Of a stretch of DNA of 12,320 nucleotides, positions 17 through 12,320 are shown piece by piece. The stretch's first letter is position 1. Every line of letters starts with the position of its first letter. The stretch comes from Candidatus Iainarchaeum sp. (GTDB lineage: Archaea > Iainarchaeota > Iainarchaeia > Iainarchaeales > CSSED10-239), in contig CALBUD010000054.1 of NCBI GenBank assembly GCA_937968065.1, forward strand, positions 1 through 12,320, in the 5' to 3' direction. The notes below the pieces were generated by a model. It saw nothing but the letters and a program-made list of their open reading frames with translations, had not been told where the DNA came from and made no database searches. The translations under genes and the position numbers were made by a program.

Positions 17-1789
17 ATGAAAAAGTTATTAATAAATAATAACAATAAAATTTACGCAATATCACCATTAATAGCAACTATTCTTTTAATTGTTGTTGCA
101 GTTGCAATCATAGGAATAATTATTTCTTGGGGAAAAAATTTTACTCAAGAAAATTTAGATATAGATGTAACAACCTACAATTTATCAAATTATAAAGATT
201 TTGTTTGGTATGATCGACTTACAGGTAATAATCTACAAATAAAAAACTTAGGAGATCAAAGTTTTGAAATAACAGGTTATAAAATAAACACCTCTCTTAA
301 TTCTCCTTATCTAAATCAAGTTATAACTTTAGATGAACCAATACAAGTATTAAATAACAGTACACAAATAATTCCTTTATTCTGTGTTCCAGAACCAGAA
401 TTTTTTATAGAAATAATAACTTCAGATAGTACTTATTTTAATATTCCTATAAAAAATGCACAAATGCATTTATCTTCTTGTTTTCTTGATTTTGAAATAA
501 CCTCACCAGAAGAAGATTATATTTTTGTTTTAACACAAGAAATATTTTTTTCTTCGCAAGTAAATAAAACTTTAGGAGATTATAATTGTTTTTGGGATTC
601 AAATATAGATGGAGAACTATCTACAGATTGTAATTTTACAAAAAGTGACTTATCTCCAGGAACACACAATATTACATTAATTGTTACAGATAATTTATTT
701 CAAGATAATTTACAAATTATACTTGAGATAAAAGATAATCTTGGAGCCGAGATCACCTCTCCAAACAATAACGATACATTTAATTATAACGAAACAATTA
801 ATCTTGTAGGTACTGCAATTAATTATTACGGAGATTATAATTGTTCTTGGTTTTCAAATCAAGATTTAAATTTAGGAACTGGTTGTACTTTAGATGTAAA
901 TTTATCTAAAAACACACACACTATAACTTTAACAGTTGAAGATGATTTAGAAGAAGTAACAGATAATATTATATTAGATATAGTTTCAATAACAGGAAAT
1001 ATAACATCACCTTTAAACAATTCTGAATACGAAGAAAATGATACTATTACTTTTCAAGCATCAGCAAATAATGCATATGATAATTTATATAGTTGTTCTT
1101 GGGATTCAAATATTGAAGTAAGCACTTTATCTACAGAGTGTTCTTTTACAAAAAGTGACTTATCTCCAGGAACACACAATATTACATTAATTGTTACAGA
1201 TAATTTAGATATAGATTATGTAAACATTAATCTAATAGTAAATGAACCACCTTGTTCAGGTCTTCCATATATAGCCTATTCTGGAAGTTATCTTTGTATT
1301 CATCCTACTTTAAATAATAATGGAGACAGTATTCAATGGGGTTGTAAGGATAACATTGTATCTCCATCAGCAACATCTTTATCTGATGGTAAACAAAACA
1401 CACAAAACATAGTTTCTTGGCATGAGGGTTGGAGTAGCCCTTGGGAAATTGGTCCTAATGGAGAAACTTGTAGTATAGATGCTGATGGAAATGTTGCTGC
1501 AAGATATTGTGATGAACTTGATTCTTATGGTTTTAATGATTGGTATTTACCTGCAAGATCTCAATTAATAGATATTTGGTATGTTGGGAGTGGTAGTAAT
1601 GAAACTATGAATGCTAATATCATAAAAGGAAATTATGAAAGTGAATGGCAAAATATTTCTACAAGTGACCATTGGACAAGTACTGAAATTAATGATGTGG
1701 CTTATGGATTTAGAGGATCTAATGGTCTTTTTAGTGTAATTGCAGGTAAAAATTTTGCTTTGCGTATTCGTTGTGTTCGTGATCATTAA
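17..1789 (+). CDS. Modular secreted/surface protein: archaeal type IV pilin-like N-terminus (class III signal peptide), beta-rich spacer, three tandem Ig/PKD-like repeats, C-terminal DUF1566 (Lcl C-terminal-like) domain; putative adhesin
   Basis: ATG at 17 opens a 590-codon frame, which is long for a genome this AT-rich. The N-terminus 'KIYAISPLIATILLIVVAVAIIGIIISW' matches the archaeal pilin/archaellin-type '(G/A)-(V/I)-SP-(V/L)-IATxLL' hydrophobic helix. Three 83-85-aa repeats each start with 'ITSP' and carry 'Y(N/S)CxW(D/F)SN...C...L S x (G/N) T H x I T L x V x D (N/D) L'. The C-terminus reads 'AARYCDELDSYGFNDWYLPARSQL ... HWTSTE ... ALRIRCVRDH', matching the DUF1566 pattern (yC..l...g..dWrLP...EL ... 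yWsSt ... vRCVR). Confidence 0.85.
   Translation: MKKLLINNNNKIYAISPLIATILLIVVAVAIIGIIISWGKNFTQENLDIDVTTYNLSNYKDFVWYDRLTGNNLQIKNLGDQSFEITGYKINTSLNSPYLNQVITLDEPIQVLNNSTQIIPLFCVPEPEFFIEIITSDSTYFNIPIKNAQMHLSSCFLDFEITSPEEDYIFVLTQEIFFSSQVNKTLGDYNCFWDSNIDGELSTDCNFTKSDLSPGTHNITLIVTDNLFQDNLQIILEIKDNLGAEITSPNNNDTFNYNETINLVGTAINYYGDYNCSWFSNQDLNLGTGCTLDVNLSKNTHTITLTVEDDLEEVTDNIILDIVSITGNITSPLNNSEYEENDTITFQASANNAYDNLYSCSWDSNIEVSTLSTECSFTKSDLSPGTHNITLIVTDNLDIDYVNINLIVNEPPCSGLPYIAYSGSYLCIHPTLNNNGDSIQWGCKDNIVSPSATSLSDGKQNTQNIVSWHEGWSSPWEIGPNGETCSIDADGNVAARYCDELDSYGFNDWYLPARSQLIDIWYVGSGSNETMNANIIKGNYESEWQNISTSDHWTSTEINDVAYGFRGSNGLFSVIAGKNFALRIRCVRDH
56..130 (+). other. Class III (prepilin-type) signal / pilin hydrophobic helix, aa 14-38 (AISPLIATILLIVVAVAIIGIIISW)
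   Basis: A short polar, Lys-containing leader (MKKLLINNNNKIY) is followed by A|ISPLIAT and about 22 uninterrupted hydrophobic residues. The putative prepilin-peptidase site would fall after Ala14. The usual charged residue at -2 is Tyr here (Lys sits at -4), so actual processing is uncertain. Confidence 0.55.
634..697 (+). repeat. Copy A of a 64-nt perfect direct repeat (inside adhesin repeat 1)
   Basis: ttttacaaaaagtgacttatctccaggaacacacaatattacattaattgttacagataattta is identical base for base to 1144-1207. I compared the two copies position by position (offset 510 nt). Confidence 0.95.
1144..1207 (+). repeat. Copy B of the 64-nt perfect direct repeat (inside adhesin repeat 3)
   Basis: Identical to 634-697. 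The flanks stay similar (gggattcaaatat at 594-606 and 1101-1113; tatctacaga just upstream) but include a one-codon indel. Confidence 0.95.
1250..1786 (+). other. DUF1566 / Lcl C-terminal-like domain (Cys- and Trp-rich) of the adhesin
   Basis: Motifs: 'IQWGC', 'AARYCDELDSYGFNDWYLPARSQLIDIW', 'HWTSTE', 'AYGFRGSNGLFSVIAGKNFALRIRCVR'. The segment contains seven Cys residues. Confidence 0.6.
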
Positions 1790-2659
1790 TTAATATTTAA
1801 AATCTTTCTCTAAAATTTGTTTTTTTGTAATATTTACATACCCTTTCATTTCTCCACCAAAACTAGGGTATACAAATACTTTCTTATCTGGATTTTCTAA
1901 AATAATTTTATCTAAGATCTTTTTTTGTTCATCATAAGATTGATGTTGATTATACAAAAATAAAATAATGTCTGCAATTGTTTTTAAAGCAACAATTGCT
2001 TGTTTTTCAATAAAGTTCATTTCTTTAAATTCTTCATGAATAAGCCCTGGAGTATCAATTACTTGAATAATTTCTTCTCTTTTTTTAAAATATCCAAAGT
2101 TAAGTGTTTTGGTTGTAAAAGAATAAGAATTAATTTCAGGATCAGCAGTTGTTATTTCAGAAAGTAAAGTTGTTTTACCTGTATTTGGAACTCCAACAAG
2201 CACAATTGTAAATAATTTTTGTGGATTTGGTATTTGTCTAAAATATTTTGAATAACCTATCAAAGCTTCATTAGTTGAATCTAGTTTTTTAAGCATAGAT
2301 TTAAGTCTTCCAAGATATTCTTTTTTAATTTTATTTTTTCCAGAATAAGTTCTTTCTCTTTTAATAAATCTTTTATATTTTTCAGATAATTTATTTATAA
2401 GTGAAATTGTTGTTATATAATGATTTTTATGTTTATCTAAATTTCTTTCTGAAACAATATTTTTAGACATTAAAAGATAATAATCTTCCATTTTTGAATA
2501 ATCTGGAAGTGTTTTTAAAATATGGTTTAATCTATCACTAATACTATTGTGCACAAAATTAATATAAAACAAGACATCATCTTGTTTTTGTTCTTTTTTA
2601 ACTTTGTTTATAACCATTTCTAAAAATTCATTTGATTTTATTATTTCTGGATATTTCAT
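1790..2659 (-). CDS. NOG1-family (nucleolar GTP-binding protein 1-like) archaeal GTPase, short form
   Basis: G1 P-loop 'GVPNTGKT', G2 region 'YSFTTK', G3 'DTPGL', and the NOG1-type 'IEKQAIVALKTIADIILFLYN' segment. The N-terminal helical region ('SISDRLNHILKTLPDYSKMEDYYLLM') resembles the NOG1 N-domain. I placed the start at the ATG at 2659 (MKYPEII...). The ORF-track start at 2680 is a TTG seven codons upstream and is possible but less likely. The stop abuts the stop of the adhesin gene. Confidence 0.8.
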   Translation of the reverse strand: MKYPEIIKSNEFLEMVINKVKKEQKQDDVLFYINFVHNSISDRLNHILKTLPDYSKMEDYYLLMSKNIVSERNLDKHKNHYITTISLINKLSEKYKRFIKRERTYSGKNKIKKEYLGRLKSMLKKLDSTNEALIGYSKYFRQIPNPQKLFTIVLVGVPNTGKTTLLSEITTADPEINSYSFTTKTLNFGYFKKREEIIQVIDTPGLIHEEFKEMNFIEKQAIVALKTIADIILFLYNQHQSYDEQKKILDKIILENPDKKVFVYPSFGGEMKGYVNITKKQILEKDFKY

Positions 2660-5703: not shown

Positions 5704-6447
5704 ATGAATAGAAATTTAAAAATAATTTTATATGTTATCTTAATTGTTTGTGTGTTTGCTTTATTATTTATTATTTTTATAAATGATGCAACAACAGATA
5801 TCTTTCCTGAAAAAGTAGATACTAACAAACCTATAGAAAACGATTTTAATACTTCAATAAACCCTATAGATTCTTCTTCTAACCAACAACAAACAGATCC
5901 AGTTGATTATAAATCATTAAATGTTTGTCAAGAGGATGATTTTGAATGTATTGTTCAAAACATTTTAGAATGTAAACCCTCTTATTTAAGATTTTCAACC
6001 ACTTCAGTTTATTCAACATCTCCTATCTATGAAATTGATGTTGTTGTAAATTATACTATCAAAGGTTATTCACAAACACAAGAATGTATAGTAGATATTG
6101 ATTATGAACAAATCAATTTTAAAAAGAGAGATGTTTCAAGAGAGGATTTAATAAATTATTTTATGGAAAAATATAATTTTTCAGAAGAAGAAGTAAATCA
6201 AACACAAATAGATGATTTGATGAATATTTCTGAAAACGAATCACAAGAAGAATTATTAATGCATAATAATCAATATTATGATTTAACAACAAAAGACGCA
6301 ACCTGTATGTTTAATCAAGAAACTATTCTTAACTTATTGAATGAGATATTTGATCTAAACAGTAAAGATTTAAGCAATCATAGTTTGTTTAATGAAGACC
6401 GAAAAATAGAAACCTATACTAATTGTACAGGTAACTTATATAACTAA
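5704..6447 (+). CDS. Hypothetical membrane-anchored, acidic, Cys-containing extracytoplasmic protein
   Basis: ATG start with a 247-codon ORF. One N-terminal TM/signal-anchor helix (IILYVILIVCVFALLFIIFI), a polar linker (SSSNQQQTDP), then a domain with 6 Cys (CQEDDFECIVQNILEC...EC...C...C). I do not recognise the family. Confidence 0.6.
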   Translation: MNRNLKIILYVILIVCVFALLFIIFINDATTDIFPEKVDTNKPIENDFNTSINPIDSSSNQQQTDPVDYKSLNVCQEDDFECIVQNILECKPSYLRFSTTSVYSTSPIYEIDVVVNYTIKGYSQTQECIVDIDYEQINFKKRDVSREDLINYFMEKYNFSEEEVNQTQIDDLMNISENESQEELLMHNNQYYDLTTKDATCMFNQETILNLLNEIFDLNSKDLSNHSLFNEDRKIETYTNCTGNLYN

Positions 6448-6449
6448 AA

Positions 6450-6887
6450 TTACCTTTCTTTAAATGTTTTTAATGATAGGTAAAGTATAATTACACCAAC
6501 AACAAACCAAGAGAGTATGTGTGTTGTTTTTGCAACCTCTAGACTTATTTTTTCAGACCCTAAAACAATAACCAGTCTTAAAAGGTTTATAAACCACATG
6601 AAAAGAACCACTTCTAAAACTCTAGTATAATCTAATATTTTTTTAAAAGCTATTTTTGAAGAAAAAACTATACTTATATATATAGATATACTGATAACTC
6701 CGCTACAGATTGGTACAAAAACAAAAGGAGCATAGTTAAGAGTTTCTTTAAAGATATTCTTTATAACAAACTCCCAGAGGCTTATAAGTGGAGTTGCTAT
6801 ACTATTAAGTAATAAGAAAGTTAATATCCCATAAATAACTATAAAATATATTAAAAATAAGATAATGGCATTATTTTTAAGTTTCAT
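6450..6887 (-). CDS. Minimal exosortase/archaeosortase-family protein (145 aa)
   Basis: Polytopic membrane protein with about 4-5 hydrophobic segments. It carries the family core in the right order and spacing: 'VPICSGVISI' (Cys61, nt 6705-6707), 'FINLLRLVIV' (Asn101/Arg104) and 'TTHILSWF' (His123). These correspond to the CSG...N..R...H pattern of the exosortase/archaeosortase core domain. It is much shorter than characterised ArtA/XrtA enzymes. Confidence 0.6.
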   Translation of the reverse strand: MKLKNNAIILFLIYFIVIYGILTFLLLNSIATPLISLWEFVIKNIFKETLNYAPFVFVPICSGVISISIYISIVFSSKIAFKKILDYTRVLEVVLFMWFINLLRLVIVLGSEKISLEVAKTTHILSWFVVGVIILYLSLKTFKER

Positions 6888-9328: not shown

Positions 9329-9829
9329 TTATCTACAAACAGTTAGTTTTTCTACATCTATTCGATATGTAAAATAAGTTTGTTTAGTATTTTTTAAAAA
9401 CAAAACATAACTATCTATATTTAAGCTTTCGTATTTTTTAGTATTTATTTTTTCAAAATCAAATAATAATTTATCTATTTTAGTATCTATTGAATTTATT
9501 TTTAGTTTTAAATCTCTTGATATACAATCTTCTCGAACAACAGAAGCTCTAAATAAAAGTTTATCTACTTCTGAGATTTCTTGATTTAATTTTACAAAAT
9601 CTATAATAATAGCCGTTGCTTCAGTGTCTTTTATTTTTGATAATCTTAATATATATTCATTAGTGTTATAAGGCACCAACAATTCTTTAGAAACCCCAAA
9701 TTCTTCATTAACACTAATAATTTCTTTAACAGTATTTTGTTTAAATTGCCACATAAACAAAAACACAAAAAGAACAATTATTATGATAATTATTAAATCT
9801 CCTAAAAAACTAACTTTTTTATTTTCCAT
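9329..9829 (-). CDS. Hypothetical single-pass membrane protein
   Basis: ATG start with a 166-codon ORF. One N-terminal TM helix (LGDLIIIIIIVLFVFLFMW) is followed by a Lys/Glu-rich soluble part. It is wedged between valS (6 nt gap) and bud32 (12 nt gap), so it is likely co-transcribed. No family recognised. Confidence 0.55.
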   Translation of the reverse strand: MENKKVSFLGDLIIIIIIVLFVFLFMWQFKQNTVKEIISVNEEFGVSKELLVPYNTNEYILRLSKIKDTEATAIIIDFVKLNQEISEVDKLLFRASVVREDCISRDLKLKINSIDTKIDKLLFDFEKINTKKYESLNIDSYVLFLKNTKQTYFTYRIDVEKLTVCR

Positions 9830-9835
9830 TCATTC

Positions 9836-12271
9836 TCAAATTATAATTTTTAGTTTTAAACCTTCATATTCATAATTAAAATCATCAACTTCATTTACTG
9901 TTTCAATTTCTTTTGAAGTTGTTACTGCAAGAAGGTCTTCTAGATATCCATTATATGTTTTATCTGTATATATAATTATCTTTTTAATCTCTGTTTTAAG
10001 TGAAAGATTGTTCTTAGATTTATAGTTCCTAATTGCTGAAACTATTTTTAAAATTTCTTGAGAGGTTTCAACATCGTCTTTTTCAATATTTGTTTTTTCT
10101 GGATATTTTAAAAGATGCACAGATTTTTCTTTTTCATGTTTTATAAAATATGCTTGGTAAAGTTCTTCTGTTATAAAAGGCATAAATATAGAATAAAGCT
10201 TAATTATTTCAATAAAGGTTTTATATAAAACAAACTTTGCAGATTTTTGTTCTTTTTCTCCTCTTCTTTCAGGATTATATAATCTATCTTTAACAATTTC
10301 AAGATAATTATCACATAATTCTTTCCAAAAGAAATGATTAATCTCATAGAATGCTTTTGAATATTCGTAGTTTTCTAAATGTTTATCTGTTTCTTCTATT
10401 AATTTATTTAGTTTATTAAGAAGATAAACATCTATTTTTTGTGTAAGATTTAAATCTTTTTCATCTGGATTATATTCGTTAAGATGCATTATTGCAAATT
10501 TTGTAGAATTAAATAATTTTACAATAGTTTTTTGTCCTGTGATTAATTCTTTCTCTTGATAAGAAAGATCTTGTCCAGGTTTACAAATTCCAGCCATATA
10601 TCTTAAAGCATCTGCTCCATATTTATCAAAAAGATAAGTTGGTTCAATAACATTTCCTAAAGATTTAGACATTTTTTTACCATCAGAACCAAGTATCCAT
10701 CCATTAATATAAACATAATTCCATGGTATTTGATTAAAATGCATTTTTGATTTTACAAGAGTGTTAAATAACCAAAAAGATATAATATCATGTCCTTGAC
10801 ATCTAAGATCCATTGGTTTATTTTTTATAAGTTCATATGTTTTATGTTCTTTTAATTTTTCTTTAATAATTAAAGGAGTTAAAGAACTAGTTGCCCAGGT
10901 TGTCATAACATCTTTTTCAGGAACTATATTTTTAGAATTACATTTAGGACAGTTACTAACGGGTGGTTTTGAGGAAATTGGATCTATTGGCAAATCATTT
11001 TCATTTGCAATAATAATTTCTTCACATTCTTGACAAATCCATAAAGGAAAAGGAATTCCATAATATATTTGTCTTGATATACACCAATCCCAATTAAGTC
11101 CTTTTACCCAATTATAATATCTATGTTTATAAAAATCAGGAATCCATTTAAATTCATCAGCCCATAAAACCATTTCTTCTTTTATATCTAAATATCTTAA
11201 AAACCATTGTTTTGATTTAATAAATTCGATTGGAGTTTTACATCTTTCATGTGTATTTACAGGATGATTGATTTGTTTTTGAGAAGTTAAAAGTCCAGCT
11301 TCTTTTAAATCTTTAATAATTTCTTTTCTAGCCTCTTCTATTTTTAAATCTTTATATTTTCCTGCAAGTTCACTCATTTTCCCATTTTTTAAGATAGATT
11401 CTTTTATAGGAAGTGAATGTATTTTTTGCCATTCAACATCAGTTATGTCTCCAAAAGTACAACACATTACAAGTCCAGTGCCTTTATTAATATCTGCTTT
11501 AGCATCTTCTAAAATAGGAACTTTAAAATCAAATAAAGGTACTTTTGCAAATTTTCCTTTTAAATCTTGATATCTTTCATCTTTAGGATTGAAAAATAAA
11601 GCAACACAAGAAGATAAAAGTTCTGGTCTTGTTGTTGATACTATTAATTTTTCATCATCATCTGTAATAAAAATAATATCATTAAAAAAAGATGGTTTTT
11701 CAATATCTTCTAAATCAACTTGCGCTACTGCTGTTTGACAGTTAGGGCACCACATAGTTGGGGCTTCCATTCTATAGATTTTACTTTTATTAAATAACTC
11801 TATAAATGATTTTTGTGAAATTTTTCTACATTCTTGATCAATAGTTGTATAATAAAAAGACCAATCAATACTCATTCCTAATCTTTTAAAATTATCTATG
11901 TAGTCTTGTCTAAGTTCTTTTTCTAAAGTATCAAGACAGAGTTTAACAAACTCTTCTCTTTCCATGTTTTGTGCTCTAACATTTTTAATTTTTTCAATAA
12001 GTTTTTGAGTTGGAAGTCCATTATCATCCGTTCCAAAAGGAAGCAATACATTATAACCTTTAAGTCTTTTATATCTTGCAAAGAAATCATGTTGAGCACC
12101 TCCATAAGCATGCCCCATGTGTAATTTTCCAGAAATTGTTGGAGGTGGAGAGTCAATTGTGTAAATTGGTTTTTCTATATTATCTCTATCAAAAGCATAT
12201 ATCTTTTCTTCTATCCAGTATTCTGACCATTTTTTTTCAGATTCTAACGGATCGTATTTTTTTTTAAGTTC
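9836..12271 (-). CDS. valS: Valine--tRNA ligase (ValRS), 5'-partial because the contig ends
   Basis: Class Ia motifs: 'PPPTISGKLHMGHA' (HIGH; His57 codon at 12119-12121), 'KMSKSLGNVIEP' (KMSKS), 'TTRPELL', archaeal-type 'GTGLVMCCTFGD', 'WCISRQIYYGIPFPLW', and Zn knuckles 'CPNC' / 'CQEC' / 'CPKC'. The native N-terminal sequence starts at '...ELKKKYDPLESEKKWSEYW', so only a few codons are missing. The ORF-track residues MCSSDL are encoded by adapter sequence. Confidence 0.9.
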   Translation of the reverse strand, partial: ELKKKYDPLESEKKWSEYWIEEKIYAFDRDNIEKPIYTIDSPPPTISGKLHMGHAYGGAQHDFFARYKRLKGYNVLLPFGTDDNGLPTQKLIEKIKNVRAQNMEREEFVKLCLDTLEKELRQDYIDNFKRLGMSIDWSFYYTTIDQECRKISQKSFIELFNKSKIYRMEAPTMWCPNCQTAVAQVDLEDIEKPSFFNDIIFITDDDEKLIVSTTRPELLSSCVALFFNPKDERYQDLKGKFAKVPLFDFKVPILEDAKADINKGTGLVMCCTFGDITDVEWQKIHSLPIKESILKNGKMSELAGKYKDLKIEEARKEIIKDLKEAGLLTSQKQINHPVNTHERCKTPIEFIKSKQWFLRYLDIKEEMVLWADEFKWIPDFYKHRYYNWVKGLNWDWCISRQIYYGIPFPLWICQECEEIIIANENDLPIDPISSKPPVSNCPKCNSKNIVPEKDVMTTWATSSLTPLIIKEKLKEHKTYELIKNKPMDLRCQGHDIISFWLFNTLVKSKMHFNQIPWNYVYINGWILGSDGKKMSKSLGNVIEPTYLFDKYGADALRYMAGICKPGQDLSYQEKELITGQKTIVKLFNSTKFAIMHLNEYNPDEKDLNLTQKIDVYLLNKLNKLIEETDKHLENYEYSKAFYEINHFFWKELCDNYLEIVKDRLYNPERRGEKEQKSAKFVLYKTFIEIIKLYSIFMPFITEELYQAYFIKHEKEKSVHLLKYPEKTNIEKDDVETSQEILKIVSAIRNYKSKNNLSLKTEIKKIIIYTDKTYNGYLEDLLAVTTSKEIETVNEVDDFNYEYEGLKLKIII

Positions 12272-12272
12272 T

Positions 12273-12320
12273 AGATCGGAAGAGCACACGTCTGAACTCC
12301 AGTCACACAGTGATCTCGTA
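12273..12320. other. Illumina TruSeq indexed adapter (sequencing artefact) at the contig end
   Basis: AGATCGGAAGAGCACACGTCTGAACTCCAGTCAC + ACAGTG + ATCTCGTA matches the TruSeq read-1 read-through adapter, a 6-nt index (ACAGTG) and the start of the P7 tail (ATCTCGTATGCCG...). Confidence 0.97.

Follow-up and report, generated by a model that had tools for sequence, protein, structure and literature searches.

What does an archaeal cell display when a single gene joins a pilin-like beginning to a lectin-like end, and is the displayed surface fixed or variable? These questions are raised by the first gene of a 12,320-nucleotide (nt) stretch of DNA from Candidatus Iainarchaeum sp. (assembly GCA_937968065.1, contig CALBUD010000054.1), here called the window. 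The gene occupies positions 17 to 1789 of the plus strand. Taken together, the features of its product point to a modular protein, with a pilin-type head, a PKD stalk, and an Lcl_C binding tail, that likely functions as a surface adhesin of a DPANN-like archaeon. The best overall explanation, which we hold with moderate confidence, is that the gene encodes a static, pilin-anchored lectin adhesin, and that it belongs to a family of archaeal pilin adhesins made variable by diversity-generating retroelements (DGRs).

Open reading frame (ORF) listing and translation yield a protein of 590 amino acids (aa) that starts with ATG. An in-frame TAG lies upstream of the start at positions 8 to 10 and, thus, the gene is complete, even though the contig begins only 16 nt 5' of the ORF. 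An identical protein is deposited in NCBI/ENA (P0001). Direct translation of the N-terminus reads MKKLLINNNNKIYA followed, past the predicted cleavage site, by ISPLIATILLIVVAVAIIGIIISW. Alignment with 34 relatives reveals a short, positively charged leader with a small last residue and then an [ILVQ]-S/T-P helix start (MKKLLINNNNKIYA before and ISPLIATILLIVVAV... after the site); in the relatives, the leader ends K-[KR]-[SAG] and the helix begins [ILV]SPLIAT. Aligned in this manner, residues 1-13 (17-55, plus strand) form a predicted class III, that is, prepilin-type, leader, with cleavage predicted after Ala13. Residues 14-48 (56-160, plus strand; ISPLIATILLIVVAVAIIGIIISWGKNF...) form the hydrophobic pilin alpha-1 helix, supported by an AlphaFold helix at 17-48 and by the family profile.

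The initial annotation described the N-terminus as archaeal type IV pilin-like, and family comparisons agree. Specifically, 12 of 22 family heads match Pilin_N, the best with E 5.2e-5. A profile built from the 22 heads and compared with solved archaeal type IV pilus subunits matches 8FK7 from Pyrobaculum best (E 1.6e-7, positions 8-120). The 8FK7 structure is the flagellar-like type IV pilus of Pyrobaculum calidifontis (PMC10334743). The same 22-head profile (A3) matches 8REY at 4e-4 and, weaker still, 9MYG, Iho670 (5KYH), and 8FJ5 of Haloferax volcanii. These matches to solved pili are results of the family profile, not of the single window sequence. What had been called a beta-rich spacer downstream of the helix is instead the pilin globular domain: residues 49-157 (161-487, plus strand) are modeled by AlphaFold as a beta-sandwich with strands between 63 and 146, have their own cysteine pair (Cys123/Cys155), and are reached by the 8FK7 profile match, which extends to position 120. 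Leader, helix, and beta-sandwich constitute one conserved unit that is kept in proteins with unrelated tails, and it is because residues 49-157 stay conserved along with the head throughout the family that we assign them to the pilin. At the family level, sequence comparison thereby identifies the N-terminal domain as a complete archaeal type IV pilin domain.

Small pilins of the relatives reinforce this assignment. The window helix is approximately 74% identical to the heads of pilins of 147-160 aa that adjoin T2SSF genes in relatives. At one such locus (L170, 7472-10999), two T2SSF (PilC/FlaJ-like) platform genes are followed by three to five small pilins with an SPLIATILL head. Many short relatives carry the Joint Genome Institute (JGI) label "flagellin-like protein." In NCBI, relatives are labeled "Candidatus ainarchaeum sp.," presumably meaning Iainarchaeum, a DPANN genus. 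We note that the arrangement of T2SSF and small-pilin genes in L170 is conserved in L161, L165, L169, L185, and L198.

The other end of the protein, residues 411-590 (1247-1786, plus strand), contains 6 Cys and 8 Trp and had been read as carrying DUF1566 motifs. Lcl_C is the new Pfam name of DUF1566, and all 10 family tails examined match it (10/10 at E <= 0.01, best 1.2e-15), while PF07603 is precomputed for 8 homologues. A profile of the 10 tails identifies two PDB entries, 8Q4E (E 2.5e-5) and 4EPS (E 0.0028); the profile is needed, as the single window tail returns chance-level PDB matches only. Structure prediction and Foldseek comparison, both proposed in the initial annotation, point the same way, though weakly. 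The AlphaFold model of the tail has a predicted local distance difference test (pLDDT) value of 78.8 and a predicted template modeling (pTM) score of 0.82, and its top two Foldseek matches, 8q4e (probability 0.93) and 4eps (probability 0.91), are the same entries that the profile search found. They are followed by snake-venom and natural killer-receptor C-type lectins at E > 1, which is non-significant. Within the family, Cys498 and Cys586 are invariant. The window tail is 39-54% identical to those of P0005, P0007, and P0004, all of which have the invariant scaffold in common; the invariant residues are present in the window as LP, DWYLP, W, and RC.RD. The window tail thus appears to be a C-type-lectin-like module of the type that DGRs hypermutate in relatives.

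The evidence that tails of this type are hypermutated comes from those relatives. Homology searches with the full-length protein uncover tens of homologues that share the first ~155 residues and differ in their C-termini; a query consisting of the tail alone retrieves none. Carried on the common head are zero to five PKD domains with Lcl_C, or FGE-sulfatase-type, LamG, Kelch, and other tails. The initial annotation knew of no characterized protein with this architecture; the homologues are unannotated ("hypothetical," "flagellin-like"), but the architecture itself recurs in tens of them. Three sets of same-headed relatives adjoin genes encoding bAvd and a reverse transcriptase (RT). One is P0007 (locus L001), which has the architecture of the window protein and is ~40% identical to it. 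Its gene is followed by bAvd, a template repeat (TR), and an RT gene. The last 109 nt of the target gene recur between bAvd and RT with 23 mismatches, 21 of which pair an adenine in the TR with any base in the variable region (VR). P0005 (L126) has the same layout as L001, and 16 of its 17 VR/TR mismatches are adenine-specific. The Lcl_C-type TRs of L001 and L126 are identical to one another at 93 of 101 positions. The theoretical coding ceiling of TRs of this type is ~10^23 sequences, which is an upper bound.

When JGI metagenomes were searched with the head motif, 80 loci were retrieved. In L166 and L168, a pilin head with an FGE-sulfatase tail lies beside Avd and RT, and every mismatch is adenine-specific (20/20 and 14/14, respectively). 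The flanks of these two loci are 97% identical over 18 kb, whereas the VRs show 25 differences, of which 23 fall at TR adenines. To judge from the sequences, this divergence of the VRs is the expected trace of past diversification. In L148 (9998-12581) and L149, a DGR-like RT gene follows a pilin-headed gene with an FGE tail, but no TR is present within 2 kb. For this reason, L148 and L149 were not counted as DGR-linked. The RCVVV end of the L148 tail is out of frame.

The initial annotation regarded the window protein as an adhesin. The modular reading is supported, with a likely role as a surface adhesin; what was missed is the DGR nature of the tail, since the corresponding tail of relatives is a DGR target.

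A second DGR-associated feature lies outside the coding sequence. Directly 3' of the stop codon, the Lcl_C-type targets L001 (11633-11702), L004 (2614-2683), and L126 (2014-2083) possess a 70-nt double hairpin with folding energies of -22.5 to -23.1 kcal/mol and z-scores of -7.7 to -10.2. A compensatory change is present in one stem of L126. The element resembles the target-site hairpin known from other DGRs. Not all family members retain both hairpins and retroelement genes. P0002 (L004) has intact hairpins but, over the 540 nt available downstream, lacks Avd, and L004 may therefore be a remote DGR target. In L005, the post-stop element (1517-1586) has decayed hairpins and RT is not seen nearby. 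In P0003, the hairpins are decayed and 3.4 kb of surrounding sequence contain no RT, while P0012, identical in three separate sequencing runs, has an AT-drifted tail and lacks hairpins. On this evidence, P0003 and P0012 look static, like the window copy.

Exchange of entire tails is suggested at one chromosomal site. L127 (7303-13159) and L001 (10001-13945) represent the same site, marked by a neighboring threonyl-tRNA synthetase gene, in different strains. The L001 strain has the pilin-PKD gene with an Lcl_C tail, followed by Avd, TR, and RT. At the same position, the L127 strain has an FGE-sulfatase-type tail, Avd, and a TR with 11 adenine-specific and 7 other mismatches, and it lacks RT. 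Farther down in L127 is a headless 261-aa ORF consisting of PKD and Lcl_C, which resembles a displaced old tail. The comparison suggests cassette-like tail replacement. In another relative, P0004 (L208, 1-1499), which is 57% identical to the window protein and retains the canonical VR scaffold, the head is out of frame with the PKD/lectin part, so that the gene is a frameshifted pseudogene or else was misassembled.

Is the window copy itself variable? Alignment with the VRs of L001 and L126 places the equivalent of the variable region at residues 556-588 (1682-1780, plus strand; TEINDVAYGFRGSNGLFSVIAGKNFALRIRCVR), and this segment is apparently fixed. No second copy of the gene's 3' end, that is, no TR, occurs within the 12.3-kb window, and neither RVT_1 (RT) nor bAvd is present among the scanned window ORFs. 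Compared to the family TRs, positions 1682-1780 differ at 19-25 of 57-58 non-adenine sites and contain indels, whereas cognate VR/TR pairs differ at 1-2 such sites. The post-stop stretch at 1790-1859 (plus strand), where DGR-linked relatives have the double hairpin, contains no hairpins when folded as DNA (-2.2 kcal/mol, z -0.56). The convergent ORF for a NOG1-type GTPase ends at 1790, its stop directly abutting the adhesin stop. Because TR, Avd, and RT are lacking from 12.3 kb, hairpins are missing, the tail has diverged through indels and changes at non-adenine sites, and a convergent GTPase gene abuts the stop, we interpret the window gene as an apparently static paralogue, of a single, fixed binding specificity, within a family of DGR targets. 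Regarding the TR search, the degenerate VR-to-TR pattern (A to A, C to M, G to R, T to W) recovers the TR in L001. On public genome contigs, the same pattern yields 120 loci consisting of poly-A or masked junk, showing that a fixed non-A anchor, e.g., CGTTGTGTTCGTGA, is needed.

Between head and tail lies the stalk. The three cysteine-paired repeats listed in the initial annotation are real, and they have a period of 85 aa over residues 158-410. PKD/immunoglobulin (Ig)-like repeat 1 spans residues 158-241 (488-739, Cys191/Cys205), repeat 2 residues 242-325 (740-991, Cys276/Cys290), and repeat 3 residues 326-410 (992-1246, Cys360/Cys375), all on the plus strand. All three are supported by DNA repeats and by the structural model, with Foldseek matches to Ig arrays for repeats 1 and 2. 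The DNA repeats in the gene are spaced 255 and 510 nt apart. Both Pfam families that match the window protein here pass their cut-offs: PKD scores 30.4 bits (cut-off 23.5), with its match at residues 339-397 in repeat 3, and Big_7 scores 29.7 bits (cut-off 24.1), matching two stretches. In the AlphaFold model, the repeats form three Ig-like domains whose pLDDT is mostly >90. Foldseek with the full-length model retrieves Ig arrays down to E 6e-12; these are generic Ig arrays only, with nothing on the termini. Repeats 1 and 3 (618-719 versus 1128-1229) have 89% DNA identity over 102 nt, compared to ~71% for repeat 2 versus repeat 1, which suggests recent duplication or gene conversion. Among relatives, the number of PKD repeats ranges from 0 to 5. 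At least 15 N-x-S/T sequons had been reported by eye; the count is in fact 18, versus 11.7 +/- 2.9 in composition-preserving shuffles (p ~0.03). This excess is modest. The protein is Asn-rich and the excess marginal, and the accompanying emphasis on a glycoprotein was therefore rejected.

Several observations weigh against the static, pilin-anchored adhesin. In the head, the predicted cleavage site of the window protein reads K-I-Y-A, with Tyr at position -2 and Lys at -4, whereas nearly all relatives have Lys or Arg at -2. A basic residue at -2 is a criterion in FlaFind-type predictors. Because Tyr replaces Lys/Arg, processing of the leader is less certain in the window protein, and the leader may be cut poorly or not at all. 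For the window protein alone, Pilin_N (PF07790) scores 15.4-15.8 bits (E 0.036) against a cut-off of 25.2, and NCBIfam arch_flag_Nterm scores 11.6 against a cut-off of 20. No prepilin peptidase or assembly ATPase is found in the 12.3-kb window or in the relatives' loci examined, including within +/-10 kb of the T2SSF/small-pilin loci, and a regular-expression scan of 86 loci for A24 peptidase and T2SSE Walker A motifs, a weak negative, detected none. In the tail, Lcl_C (PF07603) falls below its cut-off of 34.9, scoring 25.1 bits (E 2.3e-5) when the full-length protein is the query and 28.3 bits (E 2.4e-6) when only the tail is used. The tail model contains a ~60-aa insertion (residues ~437-495) of low confidence, and its Foldseek matches are weak, with TM-scores of 0.32-0.43 and E 2e-3. 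Finally, the contig break 16 nt 5' of the gene leaves room for a DGR cassette upstream of it or at some other genomic site. The Pfam check proposed in the initial annotation thus has a divided outcome: PKD and Big_7 pass and the family heads and tails match, but Pilin_N and Lcl_C are sub-threshold in the window protein alone, and for this reason both terminal assignments rest on family-level evidence.

The points concerning the head raise the main rival, a plain membrane anchor, which we consider unlikely. According to this explanation, the N-terminus is a signal-anchor only, and the protein, whether cleaved or not, is tethered in the cytoplasmic membrane by its one hydrophobic helix, with its PKD stalk and lectin extending through the S-layer, never entering a pilus. 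Sugar-binding proteins of Sulfolobus with class III signals would be comparable. The Tyr at -2, the sub-threshold Pilin_N score, and the lack of pilus assembly genes in the window are all in keeping with an anchor, and a C-terminal load of ~430 aa would fit a filament only at its tip. A bare anchor, however, would not account for a conserved unit comprising the helix and the whole beta-sandwich, nor for a match to solved pilins that extends far beyond the helix. The close identity of the helix to those of small structural pilins encoded beside T2SSF genes likewise argues against it. Minor pilins typically have such matching heads when they assemble together with a major pilin.

A second rival questions the static tail. 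Here, the window gene would still be an active DGR target, with TR, Avd, and RT located beyond the contig break or at a remote site and using other recognition elements. We regard this possibility as improbable. The family scaffold is indeed retained (W-T-S-T-E ... A-Y ... G ... K ... R-C-V-R-D-H), with many NNT codons, and contigs often break at repeats, which disrupt assemblies. Remote DGR targets are known (PMC8144416), and P0002, with intact hairpins and no adjacent Avd, suggests that targeting in trans occurs in this family. The window gene, by contrast, has no post-stop hairpins. The cassette of every cis-linked relative is located downstream, where the window has a convergent housekeeping gene. 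Non-adenine drift and indels in the window tail contrast with the near-identity of the TRs of L001 and L126 and, by eye, the tail is AT-rich like the rest of the gene, while the VRs of active members are GC-richer. A decaying relic of a former DGR target that yields no functional protein, to which the missing DGR elements, the atypical -2 residue, the apparently frameshifted P0004 (L208), and the decayed hairpins of L005 might point, is very improbable given an intact frame of 590 codons, the retention of all Cys pairs and of the invariant tail residues, confidently modeled Ig domains, and the precedent in Bacteroides of a static tip pilin, BovFim1C (4EPS), that coexists with DGR-variable ones, showing that static copies can function (PMC11601372).

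If the window gene encodes a static pilin-anchored adhesin, how might the protein work? From its architecture, we infer surface location and binding as follows. An A24 prepilin peptidase would cleave the leader after Ala13, and the helix would place the protein in a type IV pilus, as a minor subunit or at the tip, or in a short pseudopilus. The three PKD/Ig domains would act as a stalk, estimated at ~10 nm from typical Ig-domain dimensions and not from the model. The last ~35 residues of the Lcl_C domain would form the ligand-binding surface, and the ligand could be a glycan or a protein on the surface of a host or partner cell, to which the protein would adhere. In relatives that share its head and stalk, RT, with Avd helping, copies the TR with errors at adenines, the VR being the last segment of the tail, and the mutated copy homes to the 3' end of the gene, presumably via the double hairpin. 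The window copy has apparently lost the DGR elements, or never had them, and has drifted at scaffold positions.

The remainder of the window, whose G+C content is ~25%, contains archaeal housekeeping genes. In addition to the NOG1-type GTPase, these encode SecF, SecD, DUF92, ribosomal proteins S3Ae and S15, a RIO/Bud32-type kinase, and a class I aminoacyl-tRNA synthetase. The contig end at 12273-12320 (minus strand) is an Illumina TruSeq indexed adapter, TACGAGAT-CACTGT-GTGACTGGAGTTCAGACGTGTGCTCTTCCGATCT. The "GTG ... MCSSDL" start of the aminoacyl-tRNA synthetase ORF (817 aa, 9836-12289) is translated adapter and, therefore, the contig ends within the real gene, truncating it. Three ORFs have no Pfam match: 5704-6447 (plus strand, 247 aa), 6450-6887 (minus strand, 145 aa), and 9329-9829 (minus strand, 166 aa). 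They have hydrophobic N-termini or several membrane segments, and the 247-aa product is acidic and Cys-containing.

What could such a family mean for the cells that carry it? The window gene itself is an ordinary-looking, uncharacterized static adhesin; the interest lies in its family context. We tentatively propose, as a possibility that falls just short of probable, that a DPANN-like lineage uses type IV pilins to display DGR-hypermutated lectin heads. The notion is that these "programmable" tip adhesins, with up to ~10^23 variants, find and hold host or partner cells, that the pilin head has been recombined with Lcl_C, FGE-sulfatase-type, LamG, Kelch, and other tails, and that the window copy represents a frozen specificity. 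The family would thereby show specificity being explored, in the DGR-linked copies, or fixed, in the window copy. The pilin head makes two predictions: that the variable lectin resides on a pilus or at its tip, and that it is exported by a T2SSF/T2SSE-type platform together with a prepilin peptidase. As a static member with an unvarying sequence, the window protein would be a convenient construct for ligand screening.

How does this family compare with known systems? All three of its components are of known kinds: archaeal type IV pilins, PKD stalks, and DUF1566-type DGR variable domains. Known as well are the abundance of DGRs in DPANN archaea and, for bacterial type V pili, tips diversified by DGRs. 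Regarding the head, the solved archaeal type IV pilins 8FK7, 8FJ5, and 5KYH have, like the window protein, a basic leader, a helix start of the form [GAS]/[ILV]SP[LIV]I[AG] (the slash marking the cleavage site), and a beta-sandwich (PMC10334743). Those pilins are structural subunits of 130-300 aa, whereas the window protein adds ~430 residues consisting of three PKD domains and a lectin.

Regarding the tail, DUF1566 is a recognized C-type-lectin-type DGR variable domain, "category d," exemplified by LdtA (PMC5758913). In Legionella pneumophila LdtA and other category d proteins (DUF1566/CLec2), the VR occupies the very C-terminal end of a surface lectin-like domain, and some have Ig-like domains upstream (PMC5758913). 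LdtA carries a lipoprotein signal and resides in a bacterial outer membrane, whereas the window protein has an archaeal pilin domain and is encoded without TR, RT, Avd, or hairpins. The best tail match is the C-terminal domain of Legionella Lcl (8Q4E), the founder of Lcl_C PF07603, and a ...YWSS(T/I)E...VR.VR motif is common to both. This match is partial: it covers profile positions 129-176 only, and the window tail has the ~60-aa insertion and extra cysteines. Furthermore, Lcl is a bacterial collagen-like adhesin that, unlike the window protein, has no link to pilins.

Regarding the archaeal setting, DGRs account for most reverse transcriptases of DPANN archaea (PMC8632793). DPANN and nanoarchaeal DGR variable proteins, such as AvpA, come from small-genome archaea and have a C-terminal variable domain with a C-type-lectin fold (PMC4372165, PMC5006420, PMC8144416), and they have been proposed to mediate cell-cell attachment of these tiny, host-dependent cells to partners (PMC6349945). 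According to Roux et al. 2021, archaeal targets typically lack a transmembrane domain, or another conserved one, that can be recognized, and membrane binding was left open (PMC8144416). The window family differs from these published targets in having a clear pilin head and a PKD stalk. A description of archaeal DGR targets headed by a type IV pilin was not found in the searchable full-text literature, a scope that excludes the DPANN survey of Paul et al. 2017. If our proposal is correct, the head would give archaeal DGR targets their first defined route to surface display, the point left open by Roux et al. (PMC8144416). VR/TR-bearing targets with a pilin head make the DPANN attachment hypothesis concrete.

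A close parallel is bacterial. Type V pilins of Bacteroides assemble by strand exchange from a lipoprotein-type precursor. The type V tip adhesins BfrT, BthT, and BunT, together with the static BovFim1C (4EPS), fuse a pilus-subunit N-terminal part to a C-type-lectin-like head (PMC11601372). The 4EPS structure is the second-best match of the window tail both by profile and by fold. There is no homology between the N-terminal parts: the window protein begins with an archaeal type IV pilin domain, which comprises a class III leader and alpha-1 helix, and continues into the PKD stalk. Nonetheless, as in the window family, the Bacteroides heads are DGR-diversified in some members and static in others (PMC11601372), and the static window copy is comparable to BovFim1C, which coexists with the DGR-variable BunT (PMC11601372). 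If type IV pilins do display the variable heads, the family described here would be a type IV, archaeal equivalent of the Bacteroides type V tips that DGRs diversify.

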